Below the pieces are notes generated by a model. The model was given only the letters and a program-made list of their open reading frames with translations. It made no database searches and had not been told where the DNA came from. Made by a program: the position numbers and the translations under genes. From Dictyostelium discoideum (lineage: Eukaryota), in NCBI GenBank assembly GCA_000004695.1, contig CM000154.2, positions 1,216,001 to 1,280,000 on the forward strand: 64,000 nt of DNA, in the 5' to 3' direction. Positions 3,206 through 53,691 of this stretch are shown piece by piece (the first letter of the stretch is position 1; every line of letters begins with the position of its first letter).

Positions 3206-12295
<9,090 letters not shown>

Positions 12296-24988: not shown

Positions 24989-25131
24989 GTAAGTTTTTAT
25001 TAATATTAATAATATATATAAAAAAAAAAAAAAAAAAAAAAAAAAAGGTTTAAAAATTAAATGTAATTTCAAATATTAATACAAATATTCCTTTTTTTTT
25101 TTTTCCTTTCTTTTTTTTTTTTTTAAGGGAG

Positions 25132-28100
25132 GGGCCTTCATTTAGGATTAAATTTATATGGGAAAAATATAAATATAAATTCAAAGAAATCATTGGGTAG
25201 TAAATTGGAAGTGGAATCCCAAACCGTTACAAGGGTCCAACCGAATAGACCAAGTAGTAATTTAATTGGTAATTTAATATCAGTGAATAAATATTTCATA
25301 TCTTACATTATAAAGGGTGAAAAGGTTAGAATATTGGATAAATCAAGTGCAACTAAAATCTTGTTAAAAGAGTTTCCAGACGTAATAGATATTCAATTTC
25401 ATAGTGAAAATGTAAACATTTTGTCATGTTGTAGTATGTCTGATGGTTGTATTTACATTTATGAAATCGTTAATAATGGTGAATCTATAAATGCAAAATT
25501 ATTATCAAAAATTAAACAACAACCACAACCACAACCACAACCACAACCACATGGTAGTTCATCATCATCATCATCATCATCTTATTATACAACTGTTAAA
25601 TGGCATCCAACTAAAAATGATACATTATTAACTTGTACAAATGATTCAAAATTGGTTTATGCTTTTAATATAAATCAACCTGATACACCATTATTCATAT
25701 TGGATCCAACAACTGGAAATATTCCAACTGGTTTATGTTGGTTCGTACAAGAGTCACCATTCAATGCTAGTGGTAATGTTTTTGAAAAATCATCAATTTT
25801 AATTGCAAATGGTGATATTTGTATTTTTAATCAACAACAACAACAACAACCAAATATTTATCAATTAGAGAGTACATATAGTAGTATTAATGGTAGTGAT
25901 GGTAATAATTTAGATTTCTTATTTGTTAATCATATCAATTTCGATACAATTGTTGGTGTTACAAGACAATCTGAAATTTATTTATTTAATAGACAATTTT
26001 CGGTGATTCAAAAGATTACCTTTTCAAATAATCTATTTTCAATTTGTTCATTATTATCAATTAAAGATTCATTTTTATTCATCTCTGATAGTAATAGTTC
26101 AAAAGCATATATAATTCATATAAACTCTGGTAAAAAAGATAAATCAAATGATATTATTGGTGATGGTAGTGATGATAAAGATGCTATAAATAGTTTAGAT
26201 GGTGATAATAATAATAATATCAATAGTAATAATAATAATAATAATAATAATGAAGATAATGGTGGTGATGAATATCCACATTTTGATTATATTAATGAAT
26301 GTGATTTTAAGAAACCAATTATTAGTTTTTGTTTTCAATCAACACCAATAATAAATAAGAGTACAAGTACCAATAGTTTATCATCATCAACTCAATCACA
26401 ACAAACTTATCAACATCAACAAGAGAAAACAATATTTAGTGCTTGTACAATTCAATCACATTCAGTTTTACTTCATTCAATTTCTTTAGATACTTATTAT
26501 GCTGAAAATGATCAATACTCTGTCAATTCACTTGAAAATGATGTTGTCGAACAATCTGGTTTATATTTAGATTCTTTAAATAGTATTAATGGTAATAATA
26601 ATAATAATAATAATAACAACAACAATAATAATAGTAGTAATGTTGGTGGTAATAAAAATAATGGTGTTTTATCACCAACTAGCAGTACAAATGCAACCAT
26701 TGGTAGTGAAGATGATGATATTAATAAGATAATATTATTAACACCAAAATCATTCACCCCTTCATCACCACCGCCATTATCATTACCTGAACCCGATTTA
26801 TCATCAAGTCCGACATCTGATGATCCAATATTTGGTAATGTTGTCAGTGGTAAGGGTGTAGTTAATAATAATACTACCACCACAACTTCTGAAAAACCAA
26901 AGAAAGAGCCTTCTGCTGCAAGAAATTTGAAAAAGAAAACAAAATCAAAAGAGAATGAGTCAAATAGTACTACTACTGCTGCTGCTGCCACTAACACTAG
27001 TGGTAATAATTCAACACCATCTTCAAGTAGTTCTTCACCAAATGGTACAAATTCCACAACACCATCAACTACAGTATTATCTCCACCATTGTTGGTTAAT
27101 ACAACTGATGATCAATCAGGGTCAACTTCACCAGCAAGTATTAAAAAAGTGAAACCAAAAACTTCAACTACAAAGGTCACCTCTTCAAGTTCAAATGAAT
27201 CATTAAATACTTTAGATACCAAAGAAAAAGAGAAAGAAAAAGAAAAAGAAAAAACACCAACTAAACTAATTAAATCTACAACAACGACAACAACAACTAC
27301 ATCAACCACAACAACTCCATCAGCCACAACACCAACCACAACAACACCAACCAAAAAGACTCCATCATTTGTTGCCCCACAATTAGTTATACCTTTAACT
27401 AATCCAGCTTCAAAATTAACACCATCAAAATCATTATCATCAACTAATGTTAACTCTGTACCAACTTCATCAACATCACAATCATCGTCAACAACAGCAC
27501 CAGCACCAATAACTACAACAACAATGACAACTGCAACAAATACATCTCCATCCTTGTCACCTCCAACTACTGCTAATTCAACTTCTACCACTTCAAATAT
27601 ACCATCATCATTTTTCTTTTCACCAACTGAAACTAATCAAGATCATATTAACACAAATGCACCATTACCAGTACTACCACCACCACCACTATCACCACCA
27701 CAACAACAACAACAAACTTCATCTCCAACAACAACAACAGCAGCAACAACAACTTCAAATTCAAATTCACAACCAATTCAACAATCAAATTATACATCAA
27801 ATAATATTCAACAATTATTTATGGAAATGGAAAATAATTTATTTAATAGATTAGAGAGATCAATGGCAAATCAATTTGCACAACATGAAAAAGAAAGAAT
27901 TGAAAGAGAGGCAATGGAGAAGGAAAGACATGAAAAACTTTTAACAATTGTTCATCAATCAATTACAACCATGATGAAGAGTAATCTCGAAAAGATTGTA
28001 AAGAAAGAGATTGCAGCAACATTTGTAAATTTAGAGAAAACTTTACCAACTACAGTTGAACAAACCATTGGTAAGATTGCACAAGACCAATTAAAGAAAT

Positions 28101-30283: not shown

Positions 30284-30447
30284 AAAAAAAAAAAATTACA
30301 GAATGGTTGCATTCATTTTTTTATTTATTTTTTTAAAGAATTTTAAAAAATGAATGATAATAGAATTCTAAAAATAAACTTTTTTTTTTAAAAAAAAAAA
30401 AAAAAAAAAATACAGAATGGCACATTCATTTTTTTATTATTTTTTAT
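30284..30447. promoter_or_regulatory. Duplicated ~30-bp upstream motif (aaaaa..tACAGAATGG(t/c)(t/a)(g/c)CATTCATTTTTTTAtt) in a divergent promoter region
   Basis: Two near-identical copies of poly(A)-tACAGAATGGxxGCATTCATTTTTTTATT sit at ~30284-30335 and ~30390-30447, 114 bp apart. They lie between the start of the small unknown gene (29924, minus) and the twinkle ATG (30731, plus). A regulatory function is inferred only from position and duplication. Confidence 0.3.
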
Positions 30448-30587: not shown

Positions 30588-30632
<45 letters not shown>

Positions 30633-30730
30633 AATTTAAAATTTTTTTTTTTTTCTATCCAACATATAATATTTCGGTCGTTGTTTGAAACCAAATATAA
30701 AAAATAAAAATAAAATAAAATTAAAAAATC

Positions 30731-31063
30731 ATGATTTCACAATGTCGAAATTTGAATAAAACAATTCAAAGATTGTCATTGCCATCAAATATATTTAGAT
30801 TACAGTATTTTTCAACAACAACCTCTAGCACAATTCCAAAAGTAACCAACAAGAAATTAAAAGTAACAATAAAAAATAAAGATAAATTGGATATCCCATT
30901 AAATAATTTTGTTAATAATAAAGATAATAACAATGGACCATCACTAAAAATCAATTATGTTGGTGGTGAACTTGAAAATAATCCAACAACATCATCATCA
31001 TCACCTGTACAAACATCTTCAAAATCATCACCACAATCTACAACAACATTTAAAAATAATAAT

Positions 31064-31135
<72 letters not shown>

Positions 31136-33001
31136 TATAATAATAATAGTAATGAAAATAATTCATCAACATTTGTATCATCACATTATAAAGTAAATGA
31201 AGAATCAATGTTATCATATTTAGATAGAAAGAAATTAGTATATAAAATAATTGGTAAACAAATCATTGTTAAAGAGTGTCCATTATGTCATGATACAAAA
31301 GGTAAATTTGATAATTTTTGGAAATTATATATTTCAAGAGAAACAGCTGCTTTCTTCTGTCATAGATGTGGTTGTAAAGGTTCATGGATTGATTTAAAGG
31401 TAAATTTAGGTGATTTATCATTAGATCATTCAAATCATAAACCAATAATAAAATCACCAACAACAACATCAACAAATAAAACATCAAATAATGAAACTGA
31501 AGAATCAACAATTAGTATTGCAGATTTAAAAAAGATGTTAAATTATTCAAATGAATTAAATAATCATCAAGATGTAATAAAGAAATTAACAGGTAAAGAA
31601 AAAGGGGAGAGAGGATTATCAAAAGAGGTATTAGAATTTTATAAAGTTGGTGTAACAAGTCAACAATTCTTTTTTAATGATGAATGGCAAGAACATAAAT
31701 GTATAACATTCCCATGGACTACATTGGATAAAAAAGGTAATATTCAAGTACATCGTTGTAAATTAAGATCAACCAAAGAGAAATCATTACAAAGAATTGA
31801 ACCAAAAGGTGGTAAATGGGGATTCTTTGGTTGGCATACAATACCATCCGATGCAAAGGAGATTATCCTAACAGAGGGTGAATATGATGCAATGGCAGTT
31901 TATCAAGAAACTGGTATTCCCACAATTTCATTACCAAATGGTGCAAATAGTTTACCAATTGCTCTATTACCCCTATTGGAAAGATTTGAAAAGATTTATC
32001 TTTGGATGGACGATGACGTACCCGGTATGGAAGGTGCTGCAAAATTCTCAGAGAAATTAGGAATTCAACGTACTTTTATAGTTTCAACCAAACAAAATGA
32101 TCCAAATGGTCCAAAAGATGCAAACGATGCATTATTGGCTGGCAAAGATTTAAAAGCGATTTTATCAACAGCTGCCAATATACCACATGATCAAATTTGT
32201 GATTTCAGTGATGTAAGATCAATAATACATAATGAATTAAAGGATCCTCTATCGGTTATTGGTAAACAAAGTAAATGGTTCCCTTCATTTAATAAAGTTT
32301 TAAAAGGTCATAGAAAGGGAGAGTTAACCATTTTCTCTGGTCCAACTGGTATTGGTAAAACAAGTGTATTATCCCAATTATCTTTGGATTTCTGTTCACA
32401 GGGTACTAGAACACTTTGGGGTAGTTTTGAATTAAAAGTACCAAGATTGGCCAGAAAAATGTTATCACAATTTTCAAATTGTAATTTAGATAAACATGTT
32501 GAAAATTATCAAGAAATAGCAGACAATTTCTCAAATATGCCAATGTATTTCCTTAGATTCTTTGGTTCAACTCAAGTTGATAAAGTAATAGACGCTATGG
32601 AATATGCTGTTTACGTTCAAGATGTTGAACATATAGTTTTAGATAATTTACAATTCATGTTGGGTTCTCAAGCTAAAGGTATTGAAAGATTTGAAATTAT
32701 GGATGATTCAATTGAAAAACTTCGTAAATTCGCTTCTCAAAAAAATGTACATATCACTTTAGTAATTCATCCAAGAAAACAAGATATCGATCAAGTACTA
32801 AACATTAATGATATCTTTGGTACTGCTAAAGCTACTCAAGAAGCTGATAATGTTATCATTTTACAAAATTCTAAAAATAATCAACGTTATTTAGATATTA
32901 AAAAGAATCGTTTCTCTGGTGATCTTGGTATAATTCCTTTATCTTTTGAAAAAGAAACAAATAGATTTAGTGAATCAAATGAATTTGATAATAATAATTT
33001 A

Positions 33002-33038
<37 letters not shown>

Positions 33039-33044
33039 TAAATT

Positions 33045-33049
<5 letters not shown>
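30731..33049 (+). CDS. Twinkle-type mitochondrial DNA primase-helicase (T7 gp4-like): Zn-finger primase, TOPRIM and DnaB-like helicase domains; single exon
   Basis: ATG at 30731. The N-terminus (MISQCRNLNKTIQRLSLPSNIFRLQYFSTTTS) has the basic/hydroxylated look of a mitochondrial presequence. A CxxC...CxxC zinc ribbon is present (CPLCHDTKGK...CHRCGCKG). A TOPRIM-like segment follows (ILTEGEYDAMAVYQETGIPTISLPNGA...LWMDDDVPG). The helicase carries Walker A GPTGIGKTS and Walker B HIVLDNLQFM, plus an arginine-finger region; this is the same architecture as T7 gp4 and Twinkle. A poly-Asn insert lies near the N-terminus. Confidence 0.85.
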
Positions 33050-33147: not shown

Positions 33148-34128
33148 TTAAATTTTTGAGGATGTTGGTGTTGGAATTTGTTGAAATGACAAATGATTAT
33201 TGTTTGGTGCATAATAGTTATAAGTTTGTTGTTGTTGTTGTTGTTGATGCCATTGACTTTGGTTTGAAATATCTTCATTCGTTGTTGCGGTATTTAGTTG
33301 ACTTCCACAATTTACATAATTATTTGAATAGTAATTGTAATATTGTTGTTGTTGTTGTAGGTGTTGTGGAACATGGTATCTTTGTTGTTGTGGTTGTTGT
33401 GGTGGTTGTTGTTGTTGATAAACCATTTGGTTATAATTTTTATTTTGGAATTGGTAAACTTTTGGACTTTGATTATTTTTAGAAATTAATGGACTATATG
33501 GGTTATTTGGTGAATGATTAGAATGTGGTGTTTGAATATTTTTGTATACCTTTTGGGGTAGTTGAATTAATCCATTTCCATATTTTTTATTTGTTGTACT
33601 TGGACTGTTAAAGTCCCATTTGGATGTAGAGGTAGAAGAAGAATAGTTTATATTTTTAAATACATTACCATGATTTAATGGTGAATGATCAGAGTTGTTT
33701 GATTTACATGGTGCTCCAAAAGAGTAAGACTTCATTAATGTTGGTGTTGTTGGGCTACTTATATTGCATGGTGAAGAATAGTTATTAGGTGACATTGATA
33801 TTGGTGATGAATTTGATGATTCATTATTTAATTTTACATGGTTATTGTAATTATTATTATTATTATTTTTAATTATATTAATATTACTATTTGAATTATT
33901 ATTTGTGTTATTAACACTTGAAATTGAAATTGGTGATAAAGAATTTGAAGGTTTTTCAGTTTTAAAGAAAACTGGAGCGGAGTTTGAAAGAATGTTTGAA
34001 CCATTAAATTCAGTAGGACTTGATTTATTACTATTTGGTTTTGTTAAACCACCTGATAAGGACAACTCTCTTTTTTTAACGGTTTTATTTAAAAGTTTTT
34101 GTTTTAATTTAATTTCTCTTTTTAATTT
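33148..34128 (-). CDS. Asn/Gln/Ser-rich low-complexity protein, exon 2 of 2
   Basis: Acceptor aaaatag at 34130-29; phase 0. It encodes KLKREIKLKQKLLNKTVKKRELSLSGGLTKPNSNKSS... followed by long N/S/Q-rich sequence. The stop is at 33148-50. Confidence 0.5.
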   Translation of the reverse strand, partial: KLKREIKLKQKLLNKTVKKRELSLSGGLTKPNSNKSSPTEFNGSNILSNSAPVFFKTEKPSNSLSPISISSVNNTNNNSNSNINIIKNNNNNNYNNHVKLNNESSNSSPISMSPNNYSSPCNISSPTTPTLMKSYSFGAPCKSNNSDHSPLNHGNVFKNINYSSSTSTSKWDFNSPSTTNKKYGNGLIQLPQKVYKNIQTPHSNHSPNNPYSPLISKNNQSPKVYQFQNKNYNQMVYQQQQPPQQPQQQRYHVPQHLQQQQQYYNYYSNNYVNCGSQLNTATTNEDISNQSQWHQQQQQQQTYNYYAPNNNHLSFQQIPTPTSSKI

Positions 34129-34213
34129 CTATTTTAAATGATTAAAAAAAAAAAAAGTTAATATATTTTATAAATTGAAAAAAAAAATAAATAAATTAAA
34201 TAAAAAATTTTAC

Positions 34214-34717
34214 CTTTATTTTTTTCTTTAAATTTGAATTTAAATTTTGTGTTGATTGATTCTTTGAAGAGTTTGAATTATTGTTACTGATTGAAGATTG
34301 GGTAGTAATATTGTTGGTATCATTTTTAGAATTTTGTTTTGAATCTTCATCGGAGTCATCATTATCATCATCATCACTAAAAATATTATTATTATTTTCT
34401 TCATTTTTATTTTTATTTAAAATTGAATTTAAAAAATTTTCTGCTTGATTAAATTCAATTGTATTATTTTCTAAATTGTTTTTTTCTTTTAAAAGGGGTT
34501 GTTTATTTATAATATTATTACCATTTAAAAATTCACCTGGTAAATCAATTATAACTTTTTCATTATCTTGGCATTTAAAAATTACCATTGTGTTTTTATT
34601 ATTAGTAGTATTGGTATTGGTATTATTATTATTATTATTATTATTATAAATATTATTATTATTATTAATATTATTATTATTATTATTAATATTATTATTG
34701 TTACTAATAGTATCCAT
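34214..34717 (-). CDS. Asn-rich low-complexity protein, exon 1
   Basis: ATG at 34717-15 gives MDTISNNNNINNN...MVIFKCQDNEKVIIDLPGEFLNGNNIINKQ...NSNLKKKIK; the donor GTAAAA at 34213-12 is phase 0. The function is unknown. Confidence 0.45.
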
Positions 34718-35571
34718 ATTTAGTATTGTGAAATTATTATCTATTAATAATGAAATTAACAATAAAAAAAAGTTGTGATCTTGAAAAAATATAATTTAAT
34801 GTTACAAATAAAAAATGTGGGTTTATTTATTATTTTTATTTTTAATTTTTTAACGAGCAATTATTCAAACTAAGATTTAATTAATTTTTTTTTTTTTTAA
34901 TATTTTTTTAATTTTTTTTTTTTTGTTTTTTTTTTATAATTAATACTAATTGTAGATATTTATTTTAGTTCAATTTTATTTTTAAAAAATAATAATAACA
35001 TAAATTAATTTGGAAACTAAATTAAAACTTTTAAAATTTGAGTTGACTTTTTTTTTTTTTTTTCAATAAAAAATAATTTCCAATGAAGATATATATTAAA
35101 GTGGGGGGTTTGTCAAAATCAGGAAAAAAAAAAAATATAAAAATTGGGGTAATAAAATAAACCACACAAACACATTAAATTCTAGAATTTCCGTATTCAA
35201 ATATTAAAAAAAAATTTTTTTTTAGAACAACACACAACCACACAACCCATAAATAATTTTTTTTTTTTATTTAAATAAAAAATCGTAAGGACAATAACAA
35301 CAATAACACACTTAAAAAGACAAATTTGATTTCATAAAACTTTATTTTTATATTTTTTTTTTATTTTAATTTTGACCCTATTTATTTTTTTTTTCTTAAT
35401 TTTCCTTTTTAATTCCTTTTGTTTAATTCCTATATATTTGAAAATAATATTAGTAAAGGATATTTTCATTTAAAATTAATTTGAAAAGATTATATATGTT
35501 TTTATAATTACAACAATAACATGCACCTCTTTTTTTTTTTTTTTTTTTTAATTATTATTATTATTATTATC

Positions 35572-40710: not shown

Positions 40711-42656
40711 CTAATTATTTTTAGAAATGTCAACAATTTTAGATAGTGTTGCAATTGCCATAACTCTTGAGTCTTTATCAGAATCGGATTGAGATACTTC
40801 AAATAAAAATTGAGCAATATCTTCAATTTCATCAGTGTAGTCTTGATCAATAACTGACTTTGTAATTGTCTCTCTATAGAATACTCTTGATAGTGAATAA
40901 AGTAATGACCTTCTCACATTTGAATCTCTATGTGATTTAAATGACCACAAAAATCTAACCAACTCTTTTGATATCATTCTAGTATCATTTGAATTACCTG
41001 CACATTCAACAATAACACCCAATGTATGAATTAATCTACTTAATAAAAAACTATCATATCCCATCATCATCTCACCACCACTAGCACCACCTTCATAACA
41101 TTGAGTAACTTTATCAAATCCACTTAATAATGGATAAAAATAAATTTTTACAAATTTATGGAATCTATTTGATTTTATTATTGGTCTAGGTGTCTTTCTT
41201 TGTCCCCATTTTCTAACAATACCAATTTGTTTTAAAATTGGTAATTTACTACTTTCACCACTACCACCACCACCATTAATATTAAATATACTATTTTTAG
41301 ACTCTTCATACTGTTGTTGTTGTTGTTCTTGTTGTTGTTGTCTTTGAGTATTTTGTTGATAATTTAAAGCTGATAATTCTTTAGCAGATTCAGAGATTGT
41401 TTCCAAGATTTCAATTCTTTGACCAATGCTAAAATTCTTTTGTTTGAAAGCATCAGTGAGATAAGGAATTACTAATGAAGTTGATTGAGTTGCTAAGGAA
41501 ACTAATGATTCATGACGAATTGATGAGAATGATTCTAAATCATATTCATTTGTTAAATGAATTAATGAATTTGCAAGTTGTACACTTAATTCATCTAAAT
41601 CATCAGGTAATGACCAAACTATATTTGATATTGAATTTAATGCATTCTCCCATGACTCTGCTGTATGTTTTTGACTTTGTAATTCTAATAAACAGTCTCT
41701 TAAATATATCTTTTTTTTAATACCATTTAAATCTGATTCATCATCATCTAAATCATATGGTTTTAAATCATCATCATCCTCATCCTCCTCCTCATCTTCT
41801 GAATTGATTTCTGTAATTTTTGGTCCATTTTGTACTACTTCTTCATCTTCATCTTCATCTTCATCTTCATCATCTTCATCATTCATAATTTTATCAGGAT
41901 CATCATATTTTTTAAATTCTTTTTCTAATAATTTTTTATAATGTTCTTTTGAGCTATTTGATTGTTTTTTTTCATTTCCAATATTTGATGATGCTGTACT
42001 GTTGCTTGTTGTATTGGTGGTGGTAGTGGTATTGGTGGTCGTTAAAGGTTCTTGAAAAATTGGTTTAAAATTTAAAGAAAAACATTGTTGATCAGGTGTA
42101 TCTAGTGAATAGTTGAATTTTAATGGTTCTGATGAATTATTATTATTATTATTATTATTAAATAATTTTGAAAATTGTTCAGCTACAAACATACCACGAT
42201 TATTTATATTTGAAATTGTAAATTTTAAATGTACATCAATACCACTTAATAATAAATGTTTAATATGTTCAATCTTATCTGATGGTAATGGTTTAATAGT
42301 TGATGTTGATGTTGAATTTGCTATTGATAATTTTTCAATAAAAAAAATTATTGATCTTGTAATATAAGAATGTTGCTCATTTGTACAATGTCTAATAAAG
42401 TAAGGATCTTTCCATGATTTTAATAAATTATTTAAAATTAAAAATAATAATGGTTCTTTATCTTCATTTGTACTACCTTCAAATAATAGTATAGAATAAA
42501 GTAAATCTAAATAACAATTTTGACTATTATTATCCATTACTTTTAAAATTAATATTTTATTTATCATTATATGTACAATCATTGAAATTTCATTTCTTCT
42601 TTTAAAAATTTCTAAAAATATTAATTTAAAAACATCTTTATATATATTATAACTAA
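40711..42656 (-). CDS. Tel2/TELO2 (Clk-2)-like HEAT-repeat protein, exon 2 of 2 (acidic CK2-type linker and conserved C-terminal domain)
   Basis: An acceptor ag at 42658-57 follows poly-T; the phase matches exon 1. A central acidic block (DEDDEDEDEDEDEE) is followed by LKPYDLDDDESDLNGIKKKIYLRDCLLELQ...SWENALNSISNIVWSLPDDLDELSVQLANSLIHL. I recall this as similar to the human TELO2 segment SLDSDDDLKPYDMSGD...VRDCVEAL. The C-terminal helical region follows and the stop is at 40711-13. Family assignment is moderately confident. Confidence 0.5.
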
Positions 42657-42736
42657 CTAAAAAAGAAGGAAAATAATTATTAGAATATTTTTTTTAAATA
42701 TATATATATTTAAAATGAAAAATAAAAATTACATAC

Positions 42737-51912: not shown

Positions 51913-53691
51913 TTAAAATGATTGTGAAACTAAAAGAGTAGCGGTTGTACTATTAAAACCATTAAAACCAAGTAATGTTTCAAATAATTCAATTTTACTA
52001 GGTGTTTTGTCAGCCTTAATATTAAATATTACTGATAAGGAACTCTCGCCACTTAAAGGATCTGTAAAACCACTTCCAATAGCACCACTTGGACTAAACC
52101 ATGAACGTTTACCTCTTTGTAAGAGCATATATTTAGTGGTACCATCAGTATATGTGATTTTAATAGTATAATCACAACCATTTGCATGACAATACCATGC
52201 ATATTTACTAACATTTGGTCTAATGTCAACCAATTGAGTTGAATTGGTTGGATCAAAAAAGGGCATAAGATTTCCTTTTGATTTAAAAATTGGATAAATT
52301 TGAGAAAGGTTGGCTGGTCCAACAAAACTGTGAGTGATGATGATTGTGTAAACATCTACATTTCTTTCAATTGGAAGACCATCATTTATACCATAGAGAC
52401 CATTGCTCTTGGTGGATGGAGTATAGGTTTCATATTTAAGAGTTGTTGTATTCCACTTTTTGTAACCAGTGGAAAAGGATTTATCATAAATGATTGAATC
52501 TTTGAAATAGTTTTGAATGGTAACTTCTTCATAATCTGCAAACATTGAGTATCTATAGCCTTGGGCTTGGTTACCTGCACCACCTTGCATTACAGATTGT
52601 TTAACGCAATTTTTATTTTGATCCAATATAAAACTTTTATTACAATTTTTATATGCACCAATATTTGATGGAATATTTACACTTAAAAATTCATTATGGT
52701 TCATATCAAAACCCCATTCTGATCCGAGCAAGCTTCCATCTACATATGGATAATTTCCACTCTTGTAACTATCACCGGCATGGGGCAAACCATAGCTATG
52801 ACCGGCCTCGTGGATGAAAATACCAGTATAGGAATAGTCTCCGGTACCCACGGAACCACCTCCTAAGCCTCCCCAAGGATCTGCATATTTACCATTGGCA
52901 CCCAAGTGAATAAGTGGAGCATAGTAAAGAACTGATGATGGACCTTCACCATTTGCACCTCTAATTCCACTCAAAATACCCAAAACGACACTCATAATCT
53001 CATAACCATCTCTTTTTTGGTCAGAGTTGGTTATTCTTAAACCTGGTAAATTATTTCTACCAGCTGGTAAAATTAAGTATGACCAATCAATTCTGGAAAT
53101 TGGGTGATTAAGTGCATTCAATGATGACAAAGACCATTTTTGAATTAATTCATCTGAAACATCTTTAGATATTGAACCAGTTACAGAGAGTGGTTGAGTA
53201 TTGGTATCGTTTGCACCAAATAAATAGAATGGAAGAAGCCACATATTTAAATTTGTTTCATGACCAATGTTTGGGAAAAAGAATTCAGATTTCAAGAGCA
53301 TAGTTGAAAATTGAATTTTCATTTTTGGTTTCATCCAATCTTTTGGAATTCTTATACTATGATGAACAGTGGAATATTTGGTACCATTGGATTCTGTTGG
53401 TGGCAATTTACTTGGATCATTAAGTGTTAATTTTCCCATTAATGAATCATCAACCCAAACTTTAACAGTATAGGAAAGAGTTTGATCTTGAAATTTGGCT
53501 AATAACAAAGACTCTCTGTTTGGAAGAATTTTTAATGTTACAGTATTATTTTTCCAACTTTTACCTTCAATTGGAAGTACATGTGTATTGGCAAATTTAA
53601 TATCACTGACTTGTAATCTTGAAGAACAGACTGCGCAATTAATATTTGTAATTAAATTTAAAAAAACTAATAAAATAATTAATATTTTCAT
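51913..53691 (-). CDS. Dictomallein-type secreted zinc metalloprotease (peptidase family M66, StcE-like); single exon, 592 aa
   Basis: A signal peptide MKILIILLVFLNLITNINCA is followed by the M66 zinc-binding motif GIFIHEAGHSYGLPHAGD (HExxHxxGxxH). Dictyostelium has a small dtml family of such proteins; which paralog this is cannot be told from the sequence. I take the start at 53691 from the ORF track; my own count put the ATG at 53690-88, so the boundary is +/-1. Confidence 0.7.
   Translation of the reverse strand: MKILIILLVFLNLITNINCAVCSSRLQVSDIKFANTHVLPIEGKSWKNNTVTLKILPNRESLLLAKFQDQTLSYTVKVWVDDSLMGKLTLNDPSKLPPTESNGTKYSTVHHSIRIPKDWMKPKMKIQFSTMLLKSEFFFPNIGHETNLNMWLLPFYLFGANDTNTQPLSVTGSISKDVSDELIQKWSLSSLNALNHPISRIDWSYLILPAGRNNLPGLRITNSDQKRDGYEIMSVVLGILSGIRGANGEGPSSVLYYAPLIHLGANGKYADPWGGLGGGSVGTGDYSYTGIFIHEAGHSYGLPHAGDSYKSGNYPYVDGSLLGSEWGFDMNHNEFLSVNIPSNIGAYKNCNKSFILDQNKNCVKQSVMQGGAGNQAQGYRYSMFADYEEVTIQNYFKDSIIYDKSFSTGYKKWNTTTLKYETYTPSTKSNGLYGINDGLPIERNVDVYTIIITHSFVGPANLSQIYPIFKSKGNLMPFFDPTNSTQLVDIRPNVSKYAWYCHANGCDYTIKITYTDGTTKYMLLQRGKRSWFSPSGAIGSGFTDPLSGESSLSVIFNIKADKTPSKIELFETLLGFNGFNSTTATLLVSQSF

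Follow-up and report, generated by a model that had tools for sequence, protein, structure and literature searches.

Who primes mitochondrial DNA synthesis, and when animals lost the primase of Twinkle, are questions on which the Twinkles of non-metazoan organisms bear. One such case is a long reading frame of Dictyostelium discoideum. The first-pass annotation of this frame, made from the raw sequence, had described it as an intronless Twinkle homologue carrying all three modules of the T7 gene 4 protein (gp4), including a Cys4 zinc ribbon that metazoan Twinkle has lost, behind a predicted mitochondrial presequence. A bifunctional mitochondrial primase-helicase was expected from this arrangement. 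Does the frame encode an intact primase in addition to the helicase, and does the protein belong to mitochondria? We conclude that the frame is almost certainly the nuclear gene twm1 of D. discoideum, an orthologue of Twinkle and of T7 gp4 whose product is a mitochondrial primase-helicase. This finding is already known, since the gene has been characterised experimentally by Harman & Barth 2018 (PMC6299598).

Identity of the reading frame and its surroundings

The window, that is, the whole 64,000-nucleotide stretch of DNA that was analysed, has a G+C content of about 22% and contains plentiful Asn- and Gln-rich ORFs. The ORF listing of the window shows an ATG-to-TAA frame of 772 amino acids (Table 1). 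Using a stop frequency of 0.091 per codon, derived from the base composition of the window, the chance of 772 stop-free codons is about 1e-32. The ORF spans all the homologous regions, from the first methionine, which is common to D. firmibasis (MISQCRNLNKTIQR), to the C-terminus. The description as intronless is thereby confirmed, and it agrees with the published D. discoideum twm1, which has no introns and encodes 772 aa (XP_636842; Harman & Barth 2018, PMC6299598). The same authors describe Twm1 as having an Asn-rich stretch at both termini, a zinc finger, an RNA-polymerase basic motif and primase and helicase domains; for the first identification of twm1, or its prediction at the level of the family, PMC6299598 cites Shutt & Gray 2006.

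In order to establish the identity of the gene, the oligonucleotides published in PMC6299598 were compared with the window. Exact matches were obtained for primers TAS3.1 (31026-31045, minus strand), q5.2 (32024-32049, plus strand) and q3.2 (32108-32130, minus strand). The gene-specific part of TMTS3.1 ends at position 31000 and that of TAS3.1 at position 31045. Counted from an ATG at 30731, the published 1-270 and 1-315 bp fragments end at just these positions, so that this start codon fits. The expression construct of PMC6299598 corresponds to Twm1 residues 155-753, with exactly the last 19 residues removed. Placed on the window ORF, this construct lacks the presequence, the N-terminal spacer, in which the Asn tract lies, and the entire C-terminal Asn tail.

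Slight differences from the printed oligonucleotides were also observed. Compared with window positions 30729-30748 (ATCATGATTTCACAATGTCG), the printed sequence of TMTS5.1 and TAS5.1 (ATCATGATTTTCAATGTCG) contains a 1-nt indel that would shift the frame, and at position 30972 primer q5.1 reads C and the window T (Pro versus Leu codon). These differences are probably due to typographical errors in the supplement or to differences between the AX2 and AX4 strains.

Lookup of the exact 772-aa protein in a collection of 15 billion proteins gave no match. Therefore, the identity with XP_636842 is supported by length, primers and construct boundaries and not by comparing the two proteins residue by residue. 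The best database matches to the ORF were a D. discoideum protein (94%) and a D. firmibasis protein (85%), followed by other dictyostelids. Twinkle-named proteins of Acanthamoeba (an entry called 'mitochondrial helicase twinkle'), Balamuthia and Thecamonas ranked after the dictyostelids. The 94% match is an 808-aa variant from another D. discoideum assembly; its differences lie in the presequence, in the low-complexity spacers and in the C-terminal tail, apart from just three positions in the folded domains.

The flanking ORFs encode ordinary eukaryotic nuclear proteins, namely a Roco/myotubularin kinase, EDC4/Ge-1, Tel2, APC3 and SLBP. Taken with the primer and construct matches, these neighbours argue that the gene is the nuclear twm1. 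Scans of the window for tRNAs and Rfam families found none. The single exon had been set against neighbours that mostly have introns. Many adjacent same-strand ORFs can indeed be linked in frame if GT..AG stretches of 100-250 nt and 5-20% GC are removed (such as 34213..34066 and 42736..42636 on the minus strand, and 24989..25200 on the plus strand), and it is plausible from such sequence features that most neighbours carry introns. Several neighbours of twm1 are also very long uninterrupted ORFs.

Some other features of the window deserve description. The gap of about 1.5 kb between twm1 and the upstream EDC4-like gene is extremely AT-rich. A near-perfect poly(A) run of 41 nt (30594-30634) precedes the twm1 ATG by about 100 bp, and a run of 21 nt is located further up, at 30390-30410. 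The convergent downstream neighbour (33148-34762, minus strand) codes for an Asn/Gln/Ser-rich low-complexity protein with no Pfam match. Its stop codon is about 100 bp from that of twm1, and the gene is apparently split by a 148-nt intron with 10% GC (34213..34066). At 3231-12092 (minus strand), an uninterrupted ORF of 2953 aa encodes LRRs together with a myotubularin-like phosphatase domain and a protein kinase domain, an architecture that we take to be of the Roco-kinase type known from Dictyostelium. Another uninterrupted ORF, of 592 aa (51913-53691, minus strand), matches Peptidase_M66 (StcE-like metalloprotease, E=2.7e-133). Because this family is best known from bacteria, the amoeba may have acquired the ORF horizontally long ago.

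Table 1. Position and basis of the features of twm1 and its 3' flank in the window
Feature	Position	Strand	Basis
twm1 coding sequence, single exon, 772 codons + TAA	30731..33049	+	ORF listing; published 772 aa without introns, XP_636842; published primers match
Mitochondrial presequence region, residues 1-50	30731..30880	+	Composition: 10 K/R, no D/E, S/T-rich; published GFP fusion
Asn tract in the non-conserved N-terminal spacer, residues 109-139	31055..31147	+	29/31 Asn, all AAT, 23 consecutive
Zinc-binding domain (ZBD), residues 155-232, Cys4 C183/C186/C210/C213 (nt 31277-31369)	31193..31426	+	T7 gp4 alignment, AlphaFold, fold matches
Low-complexity flexible linker, zinc domain to RNA-polymerase domain, residues 233-261	31427..31513	+	pLDDT <50 at model residues 89-113
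Primase RNA-polymerase domain (RPD), residues 262-489	31514..32197	+	Pfam, T7 alignment, 40 homologues, AlphaFold, Foldseek
TOPRIM fold, residues 379-467, with E382, E384, D386, D427, D429, D463	31865-32131	+	Pfam Toprim_2
SF4 (DnaB/gp4-like) helicase domain, residues 511-747	32261..32971	+	Pfam DnaB_C + AAA_25; human Twinkle alignment; T7 motif mapping
C-terminal Asn-rich tail, residues 754-772 (NNNLN12INL), + stop codon	32990..33049	+	Last 19 residues are those removed in the published construct
43-bp tandem duplication, 2.4 copies, 98% identical, (AAT)n-ATAAATTTATAA	33003..33104	.	TRF + sequence reading

Conservation of the primase and helicase modules

Two alignments were used. One comprised 13 sequences, with T7 gene 4A (NP_041975), the window ORF and 11 eukaryotic homologues; the other comprised 40 non-metazoan eukaryotic Twinkle homologues. 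An AlphaFold2 model of residues 145-500 was compared with the PDB using Foldseek. This model, of mean pLDDT 87, shows two confident modules, ZBD and RPD/TOPRIM, with a disordered linker between them. [quoted passage not shown] In a sequence search of the PDB, human Twinkle was found at E=2e-107, T7 gp4 at 2e-16 and bacterial DnaB at 3e-5. Judged by these matches, eukaryotic Twinkle is closer to the ORF than either phage gp4 or bacterial DnaB is, and the designation of the ORF as a Twinkle homologue stands.

Both zinc-ribbon motifs of the first-pass annotation, CPLCHDTKGK and CHRCGCKG, occur in the ORF, where their cysteines are C183, C186, C210 and C213. All four align with the T7 gp4 ligands C17, C20, C36 and C39 and are invariant in the 13- as well as in the 40-sequence alignment, so that the ribbon is intact. 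The ZBD is modelled with beta strands, at pLDDT values of 88-96, and the fold matches that included a ZBD were 1nui and 2au3. No significant match to a curated Pfam zinc-finger model was obtained, either with the whole protein or with the isolated 92-residue segment; this miss reflects the coverage of the models, not a missing motif. The Pfam check suggested for the three modules succeeded in part, with Toprim_2 and DnaB_C found and zf-CHC2 negative. T7 residues D31 and H33 have no conserved counterpart at the aligned Twm1 positions, in a region where the alignment is uncertain.

The TOPRIM module is recognised by Pfam Toprim_2 (E=3e-6, above the gathering score) as well as by the Foldseek matches to the RNA-polymerase domains of T7 gp4 and DnaG; the RPD is modelled with pLDDT values of 90-98. 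Loss of the TOPRIM acidic residues would have spoken against a primase, and none is lost: E382, D427, D429 and D463 align with the identical residues E157, D207, D209 and D237 of T7 gp4 (MAFFT). In the alignment of 40 homologues, E382/E384/D386, D427/D429 and K462/D463 are invariant, as are the basic residues R342, K344, R346 and K351. T7 K122 pairs with the basic R342, and K128 and K137 pair with T348 and E357, respectively, in a part of the MAFFT alignment that is uncertain. The RNA-polymerase basic motif is counted as conserved in Twm1 in Fig. 7 of PMC6299598.

In the helicase region, DnaB_C (E=1.3e-12) and AAA_25 (E=4.8e-19) both score above their gathering thresholds. The motifs expected of a DnaB-like module are all found: Walker A GPTGIGKT with K543, the catalytic glutamate E567, the Walker B residue D638, the histidine sensor H680 and the arginine finger R727. 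K543, D638, H680 and R727 align with the identical T7 residues K318, D424, H465 and R522. E567 pairs with the T7 catalytic glutamate E343 in the phmmer alignment. The present analysis establishes the identity of the gene, the conservation of its domains and residues and its predicted fold, and thereby the presence of the catalytic and metal-binding residues and of the folds on which the enzymatic activities depend.

A poly-Asn insert of 30 residues encoded by (AAT)n had been said to interrupt the protein. The tract is present and its Asn codons are all AAT (29/29), but it has 31 residues (NNNI-N23-YNNN) and interrupts no module. In the alignment it falls into the stretch that separates the presequence from the conserved TFVSSHY start, and it precedes all three conserved modules. 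A period-3 array was detected by TRF at 31051-31162. The tract is shorter in another D. discoideum assembly and is absent from the other aligned homologues, D. firmibasis included. Active recombinant Twm1 was made without it (PMC6299598). The length of the linker between ZBD and RPD also varies between D. discoideum assemblies, and the C-terminal Asn tail is much longer (Asn/Leu) in the 808-aa protein. Both Asn-rich tracts lie outside the folded domains and are low-complexity spacers of a kind typical of Dictyostelium. At the 3' end, the 43-bp unit (AAT)n-ATAAATTTATAA comprises the end of the AAT tail with the last codons and the stop of twm1, all copied into the 3' flank. Because 43 bp is not a multiple of 3, slippage there would alter the C-terminal tail of Twm1.

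Mitochondrial targeting, activity and alternative readings

The first 50 residues include 10 K/R and 13 S/T, and the first acidic residue is D51. Such an acid-free, basic and S/T-rich composition is that expected of a matrix presequence. In a crude, home-made test, the hydrophobic moment of the N-terminus was not better than that of shuffled sequences (520/2000 shuffles). The published data settle the mitochondrial targeting of Twm1: N-terminal predictions gave 0.9887 with MitoProt and 0.852 with TargetP, and GFP fused to the first 90 residues (1-270 bp fragment, 30731-31000) co-localises with MitoTracker (PMC6299598). The annotated presequence is therefore supported both by its composition and by the GFP fusion, and a targeting prediction, the absence of which would have weakened the case, does exist.

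The combination of import, primase and helicase predicted for this protein has been demonstrated experimentally for D. discoideum twm1 (PMC6299598). In the same study, antisense inhibition (knock-down) of twm1 led to a lower mtDNA copy number. Recombinant Twm1 showed a DNA-stimulated NTPase activity and unwound fork substrates in the 5'->3' direction; it also synthesised primers on circular M13 ssDNA, which were extended by Klenow polymerase. The primase assay was performed in vitro with the truncated recombinant protein (residues 155-753). [quoted passage not shown] For twm1 itself, the priming question was answered in this publication of 2018, and the present work adds little beyond confirmation. 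A reading of the raw sequence alone did, however, correctly recover a known and experimentally validated function.

A mechanism may be proposed on these grounds. Twm1 would be synthesised in the cytosol and enter mitochondria by means of its basic, acid-free N-terminal presequence. By analogy with gp4 and Twinkle, it would act at the mtDNA fork as a ring-shaped SF4 helicase that moves along one strand in the 5'->3' direction, driven by NTP hydrolysis at the subunit interfaces, involving K543, E567, D638, H680 and R727. The N-terminal half would be an active primase of the DnaG/gp4 type. Its Cys4 zinc ribbon (C183/C186/C210/C213) would read the template, while the TOPRIM RNA-polymerase domain, with Mg2+ bound by E382, D427, D429 and D463, would produce short RNA primers that a DNA polymerase extends. 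We infer from the related enzymes the assembly into a hexameric ring, the reading of the template by the zinc ribbon, the two-metal chemistry of TOPRIM, the roles of the individual residues and the use of the primase in vivo.

Beyond acting as a fork helicase that also primes the lagging strand, Twm1 might even be a self-sufficient initiator of mtDNA replication. In this scheme, a specific site within the non-coding region of the Dictyostelium mitochondrial genome would be recognised by the zinc ribbon, the protein would load itself on circular DNA and the first primer would be made without the mitochondrial RNA polymerase. The possibility was raised by Harman & Barth (PMC6299598), and we regard it as rather unlikely. 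The strict conservation of the zinc ribbon and of the basic motif, with T7 D31 and H33 replaced, would fit a recognition sequence different from that of the phage enzyme.

Conversely, Twm1 could be a helicase only, as Twinkle is in animals. Its primase-like half would then serve in vivo as a DNA-binding or loading domain, and primers would come from the mitochondrial RNA polymerase. Human Twinkle does provide a precedent for the same overall architecture without primase activity, according to the available part of PMC9860392, and the reservations of the PMC6299598 authors concerning RNA polymerase and primase use in vivo leave room for such a division of labour. However, the zinc and Mg2+ ligands that are lost in human Twinkle are all present and are invariant across the 40 non-metazoan homologues, a pattern that speaks for catalysis being under purifying selection. 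Moreover, the primers made by recombinant Twm1 are extendable by Klenow polymerase (PMC6299598). Altogether, a protein deprived of any priming function appears very improbable, and a primase-helicase remains the preferred reading.

The other objection concerns the origin of the gene. An intron-free ORF amid probably intron-bearing neighbours could be a gp4-like gene recently acquired from a phage or virus, it could be contamination, or its protein could serve another compartment; in none of these cases would it be a resident host gene of mitochondrial function. The Twinkle/gp4 family itself derives from T-odd phages. This explanation is hardly credible, for several reasons. The composition and the Asn tracts are typical of the host, and the flanking genes are ordinary eukaryotic ones. 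Orthologues are found in every dictyostelid and in Amoebozoa generally, with an identity that declines with phylogeny (94, 85, 76, 70, 52%). The protein is much closer to human Twinkle (2e-107) than to T7 gp4 (2e-16), and its GFP fusion is mitochondrial (PMC6299598). Overall, the data are best accounted for by a resident nuclear gene encoding a mitochondrial primase-helicase.

Comparison with known primase-helicases

Human Twinkle (TWNK; PDB 7t8b, 8e2l) is an orthologous mitochondrial SF4 helicase. Residues 360-747 align with it end to end (E=2e-107) and the fold of the N-terminal domain is common to both proteins. In contrast, the positions corresponding to T7 E157 and D207 are occupied in human Twinkle by Ser and Gly, that of D237 is deleted, and the fourth zinc cysteine (C39) is replaced by Ser, whereas all these residues are kept in Twm1. 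The serine at the fourth cysteine agrees with the annotated loss of the Cys4 ribbon in metazoan Twinkle. The available part of PMC9860392 describes the human protein as devoid of primase activity.

One animal entry was considered as evidence against the loss of the primase in animals. The 'twinkle mtDNA helicase-like' protein of Schistocerca gregaria (P0027; GCA_023897955.2, JAKZLS010000243.1, L002 10001-12119) keeps the four zinc cysteines and the TOPRIM acidic residues, unlike the aligned human Twinkle. It lies, however, on an unplaced 597-kb scaffold with 8 genes in 22 kb and about 39% GC, and was rejected because this scaffold is too compact for a locust. The sequence probably comes from a non-locust eukaryote, a protist contaminant or symbiont in the Schistocerca gregaria assembly. 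The same caution applies to a match from Hirondellea gigas (P0042).

T7 gp4 (PDB 1nui, 1q57, 6n7i) has the same succession of Cys4 ZBD, TOPRIM RNA-polymerase domain and SF4 helicase as Twm1. The zinc ligands, the Mg2+ ligands, the Walker A and B motifs, the histidine sensor and the arginine finger are identical at aligned positions, although overall identity is only 24%. Twm1 differs from the phage enzyme by its presequence (about 50 residues), its spacer (about 100 residues, including the Asn tract), its Asn tail and a longer linker between ZBD and RPD. The acidic C-terminal tail by which gp4 binds T7 DNA polymerase (...DWSNDTDF) is absent from Twm1 (...NNINL), and T7 D31, H33, K128 and K137 are unmatched at the aligned positions. 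The nucleotide preference also differs, being ATP/dATP for Twm1 and dTTP for T7 gp4 (PMC6299598).

Finally, the Twinkle of Arabidopsis (At1g30680) is, like Twm1, a non-metazoan protein for which both primase and helicase activities have been demonstrated and whose zinc finger is functional, as reported in the available parts of PMC3610141 and PMC5737085. The plant protein differs from Twm1 in being dual-targeted, to chloroplasts and mitochondria, and it has a defined template recognition sequence, 5'-(G/C)GGA-3'.
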